Below are positions 18,069 to 23,744 of a stretch of DNA of 64,000 bases, piece after piece. Every line of letters starts with the position of its first letter. Positions within the stretch are counted from its first letter, which is position 1. Made by a program: the position numbers and the translations under genes. The DNA lies in contig CM052819.1 of NCBI GenBank assembly GCA_028534125.1, forward strand, positions 104,532,001 through 104,596,000, read 5' to 3'. The notes below the pieces were generated by a model, which was given only the letters and a program-made list of their open reading frames with translations, searched no databases and had not been told where the DNA came from. Origin of the DNA: Lama glama. Lineage: Eukaryota.

Positions 18069-18515
18069 CATTTTAGACATTTTTCATCTAATTCAATAAA
18101 TCCTAGGAGATCTGGGCTGTGACAGCCCTCTCACTATTTGCTTTCCATTTGTCCACCATTTTATACCCTTTTCTCTCCTCTCCTGTCTTAAGATGTTTCA
18201 GATATTTTCCACGATCAAGTCCTCCCTGCATTTTAGAAACTGTAACCAAATAGGGAAAAACAAAAGCGGGAGGGAAGCCCAGAACTGGCTCGTACGCCAC
18301 CTCGGTGTCTGTAAGGGCGGAAGAAGAAAGGTTGTGGAGGAAACACAGGGCTCTGCGATGTGAAAGCTCAGTGGAAGTAGGTAAGATCTGAATACCTCAC
18401 GTGAATGGAAATCACAGGTGGAGGCAGCGGGGTCACTGCGCACTCTACTTCGCGCATATTTGGAAGTCTTCCTGACGACACCTTGAGCGCCCAGGAGAGG
18501 CAGGTCCACCGAAGC
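18069..18515 (-). pseudogene. Exon remnants, internal Death-domain-like
   Basis: Acceptors cccctctag| (18515) and tttttccctatttggttacag| (18239); donor aatg|gtaaca. Translates YLLPLSFHIAE... then EERKGYKMVDKWKANSERAVTAQIS*DLLN (cf. eqayqML.kW.....at...L..aL). Confidence 0.55.
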
Positions 18516-21091
18516 CTAGAGGGGAGCCCAGCCGTCTCGGCGGGAAGCGATGGCTCTGTGCGTGGACAGGAAAATTGTGTCATAAGCAGTTTCAATCTTT
18601 GGGATATGAAAACAAGGACTTAAAATAAAGGATTTTTGTCATGAAACCACCCCTTTTATAGAATAAGAGGGGTTCTACACGTCCAAATGTGCTGTCACAA
18701 ATAACTCACGTGGCATCCTGGGCAGTATAGACGGCCACACGTAGCTGCAGGAGGGCGAGACTCCACTGCCCCAGGGAGTCTGGGGCTACACCGTCGCGTC
18801 CACCATGGCCTTTCAGGGTTCACTTCCTAGGACCCTTCAACATCAGACGTATTTGGAATTAGGCACAGAAATTTTAAGGAATTCAAACTAAGGAGCCTAA
18901 AATATGTTCAAGTTAAGGGATGTATGAATAGTCGAAGTTTTGCCTATTCATAATTTGGTCCATCACCATAGAAGCCCCACCTTGTTTTTTCTTTCAATTA
19001 ATACAGGAGTAATTGATATGGACTTGGGATATTAAATAGAAATTTTACTGAATGTATTTTTGATACTGAAACATTTAAGAGAAGTTGAGAATCACCATGC
19101 TTACAAAGCTGATTTCTTAGGTAATTAGATCAATGGTAAACGTTGGTTTGTTACTCATTCACTGAAGCACTTGCCAAGAAAATTAAGTTTGCTACATTAC
19201 GCAGTTTAAAATATTTGAAAGTGTTTAACATTTGCTTCTATTACTCAAGGGCTATTAAAACGGCCTCTGGTTACCAAACTTATAAATACGAGCTGAAGTT
19301 AACTATATGGAAGAACTAATTATCAAAGTCTCAAGTTTGATAAAAAACGAAGATTACTGTTTAAAACCAAAGCCAATTTCTGAGTTGTGTTCTGTACAGA
19401 AGCCAGCCATGAGTGTGCCGAAACTCGCATGTAACACGACAAGGCAGGTGCGGACAGGAGCCCACCATCCACGACGCTCGTAAGTCACAGGGTGCCATGC
19501 GCGAGGCCTCTACGGAGTGCCCGGCCCGGGCGTGGGGGCGCTTAACCTGGGAGAGGCAGGCTCAGGGTGTGGATCTTCTGTGCGACCATCTCCTGCCTCC
19601 TCTTCGGCTCCCTCTTCAGCAGCCCCTTCCCGGCCTCAGCTCTGCCAGGATCTCCCACCTTGCACACAGCCCTCTCTGCAGCCCTCTGTCCTTCTGTCCG
19701 TCTGCCCTAGATTCCACAGGACACCGCCCCCCCGCGCCCTCTCCACACCAGTTTCTTGGGAGGTGCCCCCACCCCAGCCCAGCACAGTGTGTGTGTGGCA
19801 TGAACGCACTAGCTCCAGTCGTCACGATGGTCAAAGTGCAAGGCCGCCCTCATCCTCTGACCTTCACCTCCGACCGTGGCCGGTGGTGGGGGCACCGAGC
19901 TGAGGCCTTCCCAGCCGTGGCATCTCGCCGCCTCGGGGGCCTGCTGCAGGTGCCGGGGAAGCACCTGAGGGCCCCGGGACAGCAGGCACCCTGCGGGGCT
20001 GCCAGAGGCTGAGACCCGAGGGAGGCGGGAGTCACCCAGGGGAAAGGCAGGAACGGGGCGGTCCAGCCAGGACAGTGACCAGGGGAGCTCAGGGCCTGAG
20101 TGTGAGTGGCTGGGCACGGCCCCGGGGAGGACAGGCCGGAGGGGTGGCCCGCGCATGGGACGGTGCCTCTCTGAACAAGAGGCTGGCGGCCCATGGAGAC
20201 AGCCACTTCAGTCACACCATCCCTGGGCCTCAGTGGGTCTTGACGTGGGCCCCAAATATGGTCACCCTTGTCCACCCACGAGACCCACCAGTGCCTCCCA
20301 TCTCATCACCAGTTTTCCGCCTGAGCTCCTTCCACGTCTCTAGCAGAAGGGCTGACACTTCTGTGCCTCCCGCTCCATGAATCTCCCTTGGGCATCACAT
20401 TCGAGTGGCGTGGACGACAGCCGGGTGCGTCTGTGGAGTCCCGCCCACCAAGACCCTGTCATCAGTGTCTTCTAGGGTCACACCTTGAGTGCAGCGCACT
20501 GGCCATGACTCCCCGCTGGCAAAGCAGACTTGTAGGCCCCTCCCTGAAGGAGGCCTAGGCTGAGGATTCTCCATTAAGTGGCCACAGGTGTGGGCGGAGG
20601 GAGACGTGGAGACAGAGAGACTGGCCCGGAGTCTGAGCCACTGCTCACTTGGTTTCCTGGTGCCATTCAGGCTGCTCGGGGCTGGTCTTCCTACAGAAAC
20701 CTCCCTGCAGTGGAATCCCTTGTGCATCGCCACGGTCACGGTGGGGCACGTGGTCCCAGCGATCTCTTCCGGGGGTGCAGCCCTTCCCAGCTGCATGACC
20801 TCTTGGCCGTCGGAGGTGATGCAGCGTGCATCCTGCTATGACGGGGGAGGCCCCGTGCGTCCAGGAGGGGTGGTGCTGGCGGGAGGACTGAGGGAAGGCA
20901 GGCCAACTTTCTCATCCCCGTGAGGACAGAGTGCTGCCCCTCCGTGAGGGATGGGGCTGATGTCCCCGCTGGGGGACATGGGTAACTCGGCAGTGGTCGA
21001 GAGCCACACTGAACAGTGGGAGAGCCAGACTGCCTTGGTGGATGGAACACCACGTGGAGGAGCCGTGTGGACCCGCCACCCTGCCACGTAC

Positions 21092-21270
21092 ATGCAGATG
21101 GCTTGTGACTCTCCTTCCTGATCAGAACAGAGAAGCGTTCTCCAGGCAGAGCCACGTAGCTGCTGCCGGAGGCTGGACTGACTTCCTCCAGTAAGGATGC
21201 AGCTCTGGACCACAGCCACATCACCACTGACTGAGTTCGAGAAAACCCAGTGTCACACTCTGGGGTCCAT
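21092..21270 (-). pseudogene. Exon remnant, UPA-like domain
   Basis: tgtcag|AT...CAT|gtacgt, 179 nt. Translates GPQSVTLGFLELSQW*...LHPYWRKSV...LF*SGRRVTSHLH, resembling the recalled UNC5 UPA stretch EPRVLHF...SLWKSK...HIWNGTQRYLH. Confidence 0.55.
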
Positions 21271-21544: not shown

Positions 21545-21715
21545 TCAGCACGGGGGTTCCTGCCTCTGCACTGCTCACATCTGGGCCAGATCATTCTTTG
21601 CTGGGGGCTGTCCTGTGCTGCATTCCTGGCCTCTACCCACAGGATGCTGGGAGCATTCCTCCCAGCTGTGACCCCCAAAATAGCCGACTTTGCCAACTCT
21701 CCACCGGGGGTGACA
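21545..21715. mobile_element. MER20-like hAT-Charlie element
   Basis: ctgggccagatcattctttgctgggggctgtcctgtgc...cattcctggcctctacccacaggatgc...tgtgacccccaaaa. Confidence 0.75.
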
Positions 21716-23215
21716 TCCTGGACTTCGGAGACCTGGCCACTTCACTCATCAGCCTCCCAGCCAGGCCCCAGTCCTGGTCTTGGCAATGTTGTCCTGAAGC
21801 TGCAGGGGCCAGGAGGCTCCCCCACGGCGGCCCCTCTGAGCCTCCACTGCATCCAGGGCATTTTAATTTTCCGTTTTCCCCTGTAGGTAGAAGGAAGCCT
21901 GGAGACTGAACTCTGTTCGGTCACCCCTGGGAAACCACGGTGACCTGGCTTCTGCCCCAGTGATTCAGCTCCATCTGCGTTCCAAGTTCCGCCGCCTCGG
22001 GATGGTGGGAATCACTGAGATGCTGTTATACCTGTGTCCCCACGTCCCGTGTCCCTGGCAGGGAGATTATCCTGAGTTTACAATCCCCCCCAACCCCAGC
22101 CCCTCTCTGAGGACCTATTTTCTGGGCCACTTCTTGTACTAACTACGTTATCAGTCAGGATTCTTTATAATAGGGGACGGGGAGCAGGGCAAAGGGAAAC
22201 CTCCGAGACAGAAGCCCCAGAGGCCACAGCAGTGGAGCTGTCCCCACCCTGGACCAGGGGGCGGGGGCGCGTGGACGAGGACACTGGAAGGAGACTGCGT
22301 GCAGCAGGCCGCCTTGAGCAGAGCAGTGACTTTCAGTCACGGAGACAACGAGGGGGCTGCCTCCCCTCCCCTAAGTCCCCACCAGGGCTCCCCGCAGGCT
22401 GAACCCATCCAGAAGCCAGAAGATGGGGCCTGGTGGCATGTCCTCTCGCCCAGGACAGGCGAAGAGAGGAATGGAGAGAGGACCACACAGGCAGCCCCAC
22501 AGCACGACACTGCAGCCCTGCCAGCCTGGGGGACGCCCGCACAGCCACCAGGCTGTTCCCACTACAGCTGCCCCTGTGCTGGAAGGCCCAGCCCCACCTG
22601 CTCAGGGACGGCCTGTCTTCATTCAGCCCCAAGTCAGTGCCGCCTCCTCAGAGGCCTTCCCGACTCTTACAACCACAGTGTCCCCACTCCCTAGAGGGAA
22701 GCCTCATGCAGGCAGGATCCCTGTGTTCTGAACACCCAGAACAGTGCCTATCACAAAACAAGTGCCCAGTGACTGTGTGTCCACCTGCCCACTGGACTTG
22801 TGATGGAATGTGCTGCCTTTTGCCCAAAACCAAACATCTTTATGTCTTAATTCATCCATTGATACGTCTAAGCACCCCTGTACCCATCCCGTCACCCGCC
22901 CCCCGTACGGACGTACATCCACGCGAGCACCCCTGCACCCCTCCCATCACCCGCCCCCCCGTACGGACGTACATCCACGCGAGGACCCCCGCACCTATCC
23001 ATCCAACATCCAAGCATCCATCCAGAGCTCCATTTGAGGTACATTCTCCTGCCCCTTTCAGGACCAGCATCTGTCCACCCTGTGCCCGAGGCTTAGGACA
23101 GTGACCTCATCTTTAACTCCTCCCTGGCTTCCTTTCTGGGAGATGGCATGTTGGAGCCCACGCGGGGGCCCTGAGCTGTCAGGACCATGGACGGAGAGGC
23201 CTTTGCCTCTTACGA

Positions 23216-23744
23216 GTCACCACGCTCACCCCCTCGCCGCTGCAGAGTAGCCCTGCTCTGACAGAGGGCCCAGAGGGTGTGGACGTTTTCACAGCCATGC
23301 GAGGCAGGCAGGCAGGCACGTGGTCACGGGCTGTCACCGTTTTCCTTATTTGCCCCCCAACTCTTAGCAAAGCACGAGCACGGGGGCCTCCGGAGCAGCT
23401 GCTCTGGGTTCCGTCTCATTTTCTCTAAGGCAGCGCTTCTGCTTTCTCTAGGAGGCGGCCAAACGATGTGACGACGATTCATTAGCGCTGTGCTGCAGGG
23501 CCGCTCATCAGCCACAGGAGACGTTCCCAGGCAGTCAGATAACCAGATATTTATTCCGTGGAGTGATGAATCCTCCGTCTGACTGAGTCTGCCACCGACG
23601 CCGATGGTGATCCCCACCCGCCCCAGCGCACCGCGTGTCGCCGGCAGCAGCGCCCTGCAGACACCGCGGCTCCGCGGGGGAGTGCTTCCACAGAGGCTCC
23701 AGTTTTGTGCCATTTCCCACACCGTTTTCTTTTCGTTTTTAGAG
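23216..23744 (-). pseudogene. Exon remnant, ZU5-like domain and start of UPA
   Basis: Acceptor ccactttctag|. Motifs HKTGASVEALPRGA (cf. tGvsl.iP.GA), TSPVADERPCSTALMNRRHIVWP (cf. SPvv.cgP.g..f..pv.l.ipH) and TVTARDHV (cf. v..dHF) occur in order across frameshifts. Confidence 0.6.

Follow-up and report, generated by a model that had tools for sequence, protein, structure and literature searches.

Locus and flanking genes

The window, a 64,000-nucleotide stretch of the Lama glama genome (assembly GCA_028534125.1, contig CM052819.1, positions 104,532,001 to 104,596,000 of the forward strand), contains two flanking genes and a gap of about 35 kb with no recognised gene and a GC content of 58%. 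A preliminary description had proposed, on the minus strand of this interval, a ZU5-UPA-Death supramodule located in the middle of a protein, upstream of SPRY and Roc-COR. The features considered below are the following:

274..695, plus strand: probably the last two coding exons of the flanking gene SLC37A1 (no match in PDB)
11080..11611, minus strand: putative Roc-like motif echoes (G1-like at 11611, post-G3-like at 11328, G4-like at 11097)
18069..18515, minus strand: putative Death-like segment bounded by AG and GT, with a helix-like motif at 18168-18142
21092..21270, minus strand: putative UPA-like segment bounded by AG and GT (179 bases, one open frame of 59 codons)
23214..23744, minus strand: putative ZU5-like segment bounded by AG and GT, with loose ZU5-type motifs scattered across three frames
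23304..23333, minus strand: DHV site (23325-23317) and, in another frame, a mid-ZU5-like motif
37327..37395, plus strand: coding exon 1 of the flanking gene PDE9A (22 of 23 residues identical, E 1.2e-08; GT directly after)

The interval is mammalian intergenic DNA that lies upstream of PDE9A exon 1 and does not code for protein. The spread of GC among codon positions is at most 0.07, and 19400-18600 is AT-rich. The proposed exons are interrupted by stops and frame changes, so that the proposed protein cannot be produced from the interval; therefore, there is no supramodule and no autoproteolysis. When the interval was compared with itself, a tandem repeat of 55 bases was detected, together with two weak matches (E 0.002 and 0.009), with no LRR or ZU5 duplication, and Rfam gave no matches to it.

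Boundaries, frames and phase of the proposed exons

Real AG or GT dinucleotides are present at five of the six proposed exon ends. Minus-strand acceptors precede 23744, 21270 and 18515, and donors follow 21092 and 18069, but the remaining end, 23216, is not a donor, and the nearest GT follows 23214 or 23230. An alternative acceptor for the Death-like segment precedes 18596. By a crude matrix, the proposed acceptors rank among the best 4-17% of the 2577 AGs, and the proposed donors among the best 4-10% of the 1932 GTs. The minimum number of stops is 1 in the ZU5-like, 0 in the UPA-like and 3 in the Death-like segment, with as few or fewer in 15%, 50% and 77% of equal-length tiles, respectively. 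Both the splice strength and the open frames of the three segments are ordinary.

The three domains are not contiguous in one reading frame: stops and frame changes occur in the first (ZU5-like) and third (Death-like) segments, and the DHV frame of the first is out of phase with the open frame of the second (1+1 bases). The second segment joins the third in phase, in the Death-like frame.

Searches for ZU5, UPA and Death domains

Pfam was searched with 368 of the 399 minus-strand open frames of at least 30 aa (minimum length 30 aa within 13.4-25.5 kb and 35 aa outside it, the set omitting two frames that overlap the PDE9A start) and with 105 of the 271 plus-strand frames of at least 45 aa. ZU5, UPA, Death, SPRY, Roc and COR were matched by none of them, and only stray weak matches were seen. 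The same six domain types were not found in 22 frames read through stops; a Med23 match of a read-through frame (E 0.0019) was rejected as far under its cut-off. No relevant NCBIfam family was matched by any of six read-through frames, and PDB searches at E up to 10 returned no ZU5, UPA, Death or Roc chain. ESM recognition reached 1050 and 1304 for the ZU5-like and Death-like queries, versus 2300, a value attained by 91 in 100 known-family proteins. A protein word search produced 467 and 163 candidates, none of which scored, plasmid tblastn produced one chance-level match per query, and an exact look-up found none of five frames. Protein searches revealed no orthologue; the DNA collections used were bacterial, archaeal, phage and plasmid.

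The ZU5 domain proposed at 23744-23216 was matched by nothing in Pfam, NCBIfam, PDB, ESM Atlas, the word search, the fold search or plasmid tblastn, although power is low on decayed sequence. Its single-sequence fold is helical (pLDDT 37.5, no fold match), a model too poor to judge a beta-sandwich. Similarly, nothing matched UPA at 21270-21092 by profile, sequence or pattern (Pfam, NCBIfam, PDB, motif patterns); a WD40 match of this segment in PDB was rejected, as it merely added up repeat matches of 2-3 bits. This segment may be at least as similar to the beginning of a second ZU5 as to UPA. Neither ZU5 nor UPA gave a profile match in the window itself; the preliminary description had named such an outcome, if it extended to orthologues, as contrary to its reading.

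For 18069..18515, there was no Death domain match in Pfam, PDB or ESM Atlas, and the model of the segment (pLDDT 45.6, four helices) had no fold match. The helix motif behind the Death-like claim can be seen at 18168-18142, but the motif was matched in 87 of 400 shuffles; its frame carries 7 stops. A phmmer search of 1.84 billion proteins with one frame of 19400-17250 (not the frame of the Death-like motif) found no long protein. Two short matches were obtained, which cross the proposed acceptor, as expected of homology to unspliced genomic DNA.

The DHV tripeptide had been described as a decayed form of the HF|S site at which ZU5 domains of PIDD1 autoproteolyse. DHV is present at 23325-23317, but its register is ambiguous and its frequency is at chance (6 in the window versus 5.5 expected). 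The bases 23333-23304 can be read as ZU5 in two mutually incompatible ways and also contain the sole (TGCC)3+ run of the window; HF(S/T) does not occur on the minus strand within 23744-23214. The spacing around DHV and the stretch that follows may resemble the PIDD1 ZU5-ZU5 junction.

Motif chains, Roc-like echoes and detection limits

The tuned ZU5 chain (23596/23387/23333) and the tuned Roc chain (11611/11328/11097) are each unique in the window; the former was reached in 0 of 400 shuffles and the latter in 1 of 150 and 0 of 400. These patterns were picked after the sequence had been seen. In the untuned versions, the locus scores for ZU5 (14 of 28), Death and Roc were each reached in 200 of 200 shuffles, and the tuned chains were therefore not taken as proof.

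The core G3 motif is unrecognisable in 11080..11611. Bacterial Roc profiles gave background at this locus, whose chain was equalled or beaten by 69% of 1000 null tiles. Bacterial Roc blocks scored -16 to +1.2 bits at the positions chosen by eye, the pairwise comparison with a bacterial Roc gave E 2.6, and hmmsearch on whole frames gave nothing. Neither Roc nor COR was matched in Pfam, and a 74-sequence bacterial Roc-COR profile gave no signal, with low power. A broader motif scan of bacterial genomes yielded 120 loci, and profiles were built from 74 and 18 of them; no animal-type Roc motif was found in bacterial genomes. One candidate animal Roco protein, reached through a bacterial query, was rejected; its source label is internalin-type LRR protein. 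The SPRY and Roc-COR that would render the module internal are themselves unconfirmed.

In simulated decay, five intact bacterial Roc domains dropped from 144-194 bits to 20-34 at 30% substitution and to 15-18 at 35%; the null maximum for this scoring is about 22 bits, and intact LRRK2 scores just 50-60 bits against one bacterial Roc. Because a simulated Roc gene is undetectable at 30-35% base substitution, the negative results are weak, and the tests are too blunt to exclude a very old dead gene.

Interpretation

We lean toward the view that the "motifs" read as ZU5, UPA and Death resemble these domains by chance, in DNA that is non-coding. Three frames of a 35-kb interval with 58% GC would offer AG/GT sites by the thousand and numerous short look-alikes of motifs, enough to build an ordered exon model by eye if frameshifts and stops were allowed. 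That no real ZU5, UPA or Death domain is present, which we regard as somewhat the better bet, is consistent with the lack of domain matches in Pfam, NCBIfam, PDB, phmmer and ESM, with the 200 of 200 shuffles that equalled each untuned chain (ZU5, Death and Roc), and with ordinary stop counts and a codon-position GC spread of at most 0.07. On the other side, the tests weaken on old pseudogenes (30-35% substitution), phmmer took in one frame, not that of the Death-like motif, and the window contains a single tuned ZU5 chain and a single tuned Roc chain (each 0 of 400 shuffles), which share a strand and flank the Death-like motif in the order that the model predicts. The likeness to a broken cell-death signalling gene was seen by eye only and is confirmed by no test.

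A less probable reading is that an old unitary pseudogene lies in the interval, derived from a PIDD1-like Roco protein in which ZU5(-ZU5)-UPA-Death was followed by SPRY and Roc-COR. Such an ancestor may have cut itself after ZU5, like PIDD1, to leave a UPA-Death-SPRY-Roc-COR fragment that would oligomerise via its UPA and Death domains while the Roc GTPase served as a switch. The two unique tuned chains (0 of 400 shuffles), with the Death-like motif (18165) between them, point in this direction, as do the splice dinucleotides at five of six exon ends, the 35-kb gap without a recognised gene, the in-phase junction of the second and third segments, and the possible likeness of the DHV spacing and the stretch after it to the PIDD1 ZU5-ZU5 junction. 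However, the tuned patterns were chosen post hoc and the untuned version yielded nothing; the Roc blocks (-16 to +1.2 bits) and null tiles (69% of 1000 at or above the locus chain), the absent core G3, the lack of a UPA match or a long homologue, and the two short phmmer matches across the proposed acceptor, like unspliced genomic homology, all argue against a pseudogene. Tentatively, the locus might be what is left of a fifth Roco gene of vertebrates, hitherto undescribed, which would have died in placental mammals but might still be intact elsewhere among vertebrates; if so, this lost gene would have linked a death-fold module of the PIDDosome type with a GTPase switch of the LRRK2 type.

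A partly real dead gene with wrong labels is improbable; examples are a ZU5 or Roc remnant alone, or a second ZU5 whose start is 21270-21092, with the UPA and Death exons lost at their proposed places. In its favour, the ZU5-like and Roc-like echoes outdo the Death-like one (0 versus 87 of 400 shuffles), the UPA pattern is unmatched, and two incompatible ZU5 readings lie on 23333-23304. Against it, the library searches and untuned tests are as negative for this version as for the full model.

Overall, the observation is partly confirmed: the splice dinucleotides, DHV and the helix-like motif are present, but none of the three domains is confirmed, nor is any excess of these features over chance. 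As it stands, the locus is of little significance: the model yields no expression, and an internal position has precedents.

Comparison with known systems

None of the papers searched describes ZU5, SPRY and Roc-COR together. The G1, post-G3 strand and G4 echoes seen by eye at 11611-11080 recall the Roco proteins LRRK1, LRRK2, MFHAS1 and DAPK1, and the order of the motifs was seen in LRRK2. In contrast to these proteins, the locus has no core G3 and no profile match, and its motif spacing is longer than that of LRRK2.

PIDD1 contains LRR, ZU5 (323-417), ZU5 (457-545) and Death (778-873) in 910 aa (PMC9573974 Table 1), and its HF/S cleavage occurs at Ser-446 and Ser-588 (PMC3210808). The proposed domain order and, possibly, the by-eye motif echoes near DHV are PIDD1-like. 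PIDD1, however, is an intact protein that carries a pair of ZU5 domains with HF/S sites and terminates shortly after Death; at the locus, there is no open reading frame, HF(S/T) is absent from the ZU5-like segment, and no profile matches. The UNC5 paralogues, UNC5CL and DTHD1 have a single ZU5-UPA-Death. This single-ZU5 order is the one proposed for the locus, but with E up to 10 allowed, no segment matched a PDB chain of UNC5A-D, UNC5CL or DTHD1. UNC5b, which has a single ZU5-UPA-Death, carries Leu-677 at the position of the buried Phe-296 in CARD8 (PMC3210808), so the absence of HFS need not mean decay.

The internal position of the module had been presented as unusual, which is overstated. 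An internal module is not new, since ankyrin-R carries about 380 residues after it. To our knowledge, ankyrins lack SPRY and Roc-COR; the locus, in turn, has no ankyrin repeats or ankyrin match. Ankyrin-R, -B and -G share the internal module, being composed of ANK repeats, ZU5-ZU5-UPA-Death and a C-terminal regulatory domain, which comprises residues 1529-1907 in ankyrin-R (PMC4358367). The amphioxus protein LOC118406448, with LRR, ZU5 (448-546) and kinase (956-1222) (PMC9573974 Table 3), differs from the locus in being encoded by an intact annotated gene, in having a kinase instead of Roc-COR and in listing no Death domain, but, as in the proposed arrangement, its ZU5 lies upstream of a catalytic domain.

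Genomic context

The window consists of GC-rich mammalian DNA. Its first 700 bases presumably correspond to the last two SLC37A1 exons, and the three proposed segments lie within the 35-kb gap that separates these from PDE9A. We assume that LINC01671 and LINC01668 occupy the corresponding human gap. The features concerned are:

23744-23214, minus strand, segment 1, ZU5-like
21270-21092, minus strand, segment 2, UPA-like
18515-18069, minus strand, segment 3, Death-like
Start 37327, plus strand, PDE9A coding exon 1 (22/23 residues identical to PDE9A, E 1.2e-08)
12951-13412, assembly gap inside the proposed gene, could conceal an exon
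49902-50097, assembly gap
16370-16630 (minus strand) and 49520-49900 (plus strand), presumed L1-type 3' ends resembling even-toed ungulate/whale L1s
22871-23000, tandem repeat (56-base unit, 2.3 copies) just downstream of segment 1
36659-36923, tandem repeat (55-base unit, ~3.3 copies) ~400 bases 5' of the PDE9A start

SLC37A1, PDE9A, LINC01671, and LINC01668 are entries in a 21q22.3 gene table (PMC12779367).

Exon boundaries and coding capacity

The three ranges, which the preliminary description assigned to a ZU5-UPA-Death supramodule upstream of SPRY and Roc-COR, are exon guesses. Five of their six ends are true AG/GT sites, but the sixth, originally placed at 23216, has no donor; a GT follows 23214 or 23230. 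Ranked with a crude splice matrix against all 2577 AGs, the acceptors fell within the top 4.4, 16.5, and 11.1%; against 1932 GTs, the donors fell within the top 9.7, 3.8, and 6.8%. For each site, then, dozens to hundreds of others are equally strong.

The fewest stops in any frame were 1, 0, and 3 for segments 1, 2, and 3; equal-length tiles with as few or fewer made up 15, 50, and 77%, respectively. GC contrast among codon positions did not exceed 0.07. The ZU5-like motifs of segment 1 are scattered across all three frames, the frame of its tripeptide DHV (23325-23317, minus strand) is out of phase with the open frame of segment 2 at the junction, and the frame of the Death-like motif (18168-18142) contains 7 stops. 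The exon model as drawn encodes no protein.

The putative autoproteolysis site

PIDD is cleaved at HF/S after each ZU5, via Ser-446 and Ser-588 (PMC3210808). DHV had been proposed as the decayed equivalent of this site. HF(S/T) was indeed not found in the ZU5-like segment, but DHV occurs at chance frequency (6 observed versus 5.5 expected in the window), and two incompatible registers fit, because the same bases, which include the window's sole (TGCC)3+ run, yield a mid-ZU5-like motif in another frame. The spacing after DHV, together with segment 2, may resemble the start of the second ZU5 of PIDD1; if this holds, segment 2 would be a ZU5, not a UPA. HF(S/T) was observed 36 times in the window versus 29 expected, and an exact HFS motif lies far downstream of the ZU5-like segment, at 3842-3859 (minus strand). 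A missing HFS need not signal decay, since the buried phenylalanine of CARD8 is leucine in UNC5b (PMC3210808).

Motif statistics

One set of patterns was adjusted after the sequence was viewed. With these tuned patterns, the ZU5 chain (23596/23387/23333) was single in the window and absent from shuffles (0/400), as was the Roc chain (0/400; 1/150 in a separate run); the Death-like motif was reached in 87/400 shuffles, and the UPA patterns had no match at all. The two chains and the Death-like motif share the minus strand and follow one another in the order expected. With the full motif sets and no tuned thresholds, scores at the loci (ZU5 14/28, Death 6/12, Roc 14/26) were matched or exceeded by 200/200 shuffles; therefore, the rarity of the tuned chains mostly reflects tuning.

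Homology searches

ZU5, UPA, Death, SPRY, Roc, and COR had no Pfam match (368 open frames on the minus strand, 105 on the plus strand, and 22 frames translated across their stops), no NCBIfam match (0/6 frames), and no PDB chain at E up to 10 (six queries). The window itself thus gave none of the ZU5 or UPA profile matches whose absence, in orthologues as well, would count against the supramodule. ESM Atlas returned hypothetical proteins only (0.77-0.78) for the ZU5-like frame and no match for the Death-like frame. Single-sequence structure models (pLDDT 37.5 and 45.6, respectively) had no fold match and were too poor to say much, and word searches for homologues scored 0/467 and 0/163 candidates.

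One frame of 19400-17250, compared by phmmer with 1.84 billion proteins, matched two short unnamed proteins, one of 153 aa (E 1.6e-10) and one of 114 aa (E 4.8e-04), with 45-46% identity at query residues 250-334, i.e., window positions 18653-18399, the sole stretch of this single queried frame with a protein-level homologue. Both matches span the proposed acceptor (18515), a pattern that fits homologous but unspliced DNA of some other genome better than a spliced gene. Between segments 2 and 3 lies an AT-rich island (18601-19400), with GC 0.38 versus 0.58 for the 35-kb interval. It could represent an old repeat, a conserved element, or an exon that was missed; at 19229 it carries a near-match to the ZU5 end motif, containing HF.

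The Roc-COR region was examined because the internal status of the module depends on it. By eye, G1-like (11611), post-G3-like (11328), and G4-like (11097) stretches occur in order, without a recognisable core G3 motif. Two profiles, which drew on 74 and 18 members of a set of 120 bacterial Roc loci and were scanned with frameshifts allowed, scored 15.7 and 14.4 bits here, in the wrong register (null medians 14.6 and 14.7), and 69% of 1000 null tiles equalled or exceeded the Roc block chain of the locus. Loose echoes were seen by eye of SPRY at 17460-17483 (minus strand; no Pfam match) and of COR in a 428-base AG/GT-bounded segment at 10210-10637 (minus strand; no profile support).

Discussion

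On present evidence, the three segments do not count as a real feature: five of the six segment ends are confirmed as splice dinucleotides, but none of the domains is confirmed. The most likely explanation is intergenic DNA in which a model was pieced together from brief chance resemblances, with no mechanism behind it.

When intact, the bacterial Roc domains of a held-out set of five reached 144-194 bits, and intact LRRK2 scored 50-60 bits against one bacterial Roc. Under random substitution the five bacterial domains fell to 20-34 bits at 30% and 15-18 bits at 35% (null maximum ~22); an old mammalian pseudogene would therefore escape these tests. A real fossil ZU5-UPA-Death-SPRY-Roc-COR gene is a tentative second explanation, less probable than look-alikes. 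If it were real, the ancestral protein would, by analogy, most likely have acted like PIDD1, NLRP1, or CARD8: a cut after ZU5 would have freed a UPA-death-fold fragment to oligomerise, and this fragment would also have carried SPRY and a Roc-COR switch. Such release is described for PIDD1/NLRP1/CARD8-type proteins (PMC7794386). That the segments are a partly real remnant under other labels is improbable.

No paper combining ZU5, SPRY, and Roc-COR was found in a literature search reaching few subscription journals; PMC8195603 mentions ZU5, Roco, and the death domain, and its accessible part describes no such combined protein. Nor was a gene reported at this place in the literature searched, which lay outside bioRxiv supplements and annotation databases, so an existing annotation may be missed. 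The flanking genes and lncRNAs are not named in the accessible supplement portions of three gene-loss papers: PMC5577775 (4 files), PMC10195156 (1 file), and PMC6886504 (9 files except 1 and 8; assumed coordinate range). The accessible part of PMC12909245 holds nothing further on the locus.

The internal position of the module, presented as a departure from a C-terminal rule, is already known in ankyrins, where a regulatory domain (residues 1529-1907 in ankyrin-R) follows ZU5-ZU5-UPA-Death (PMC4358367); the module of ankyrin-R is thus internal, as proposed for the window. An amphioxus protein has ZU5 upstream of a kinase (PMC9573974), whereas in the window model ZU5 precedes Roc-COR. If the fossil gene were true, its novelty would be a vertebrate fusion of the module to SPRY-Roc-COR.
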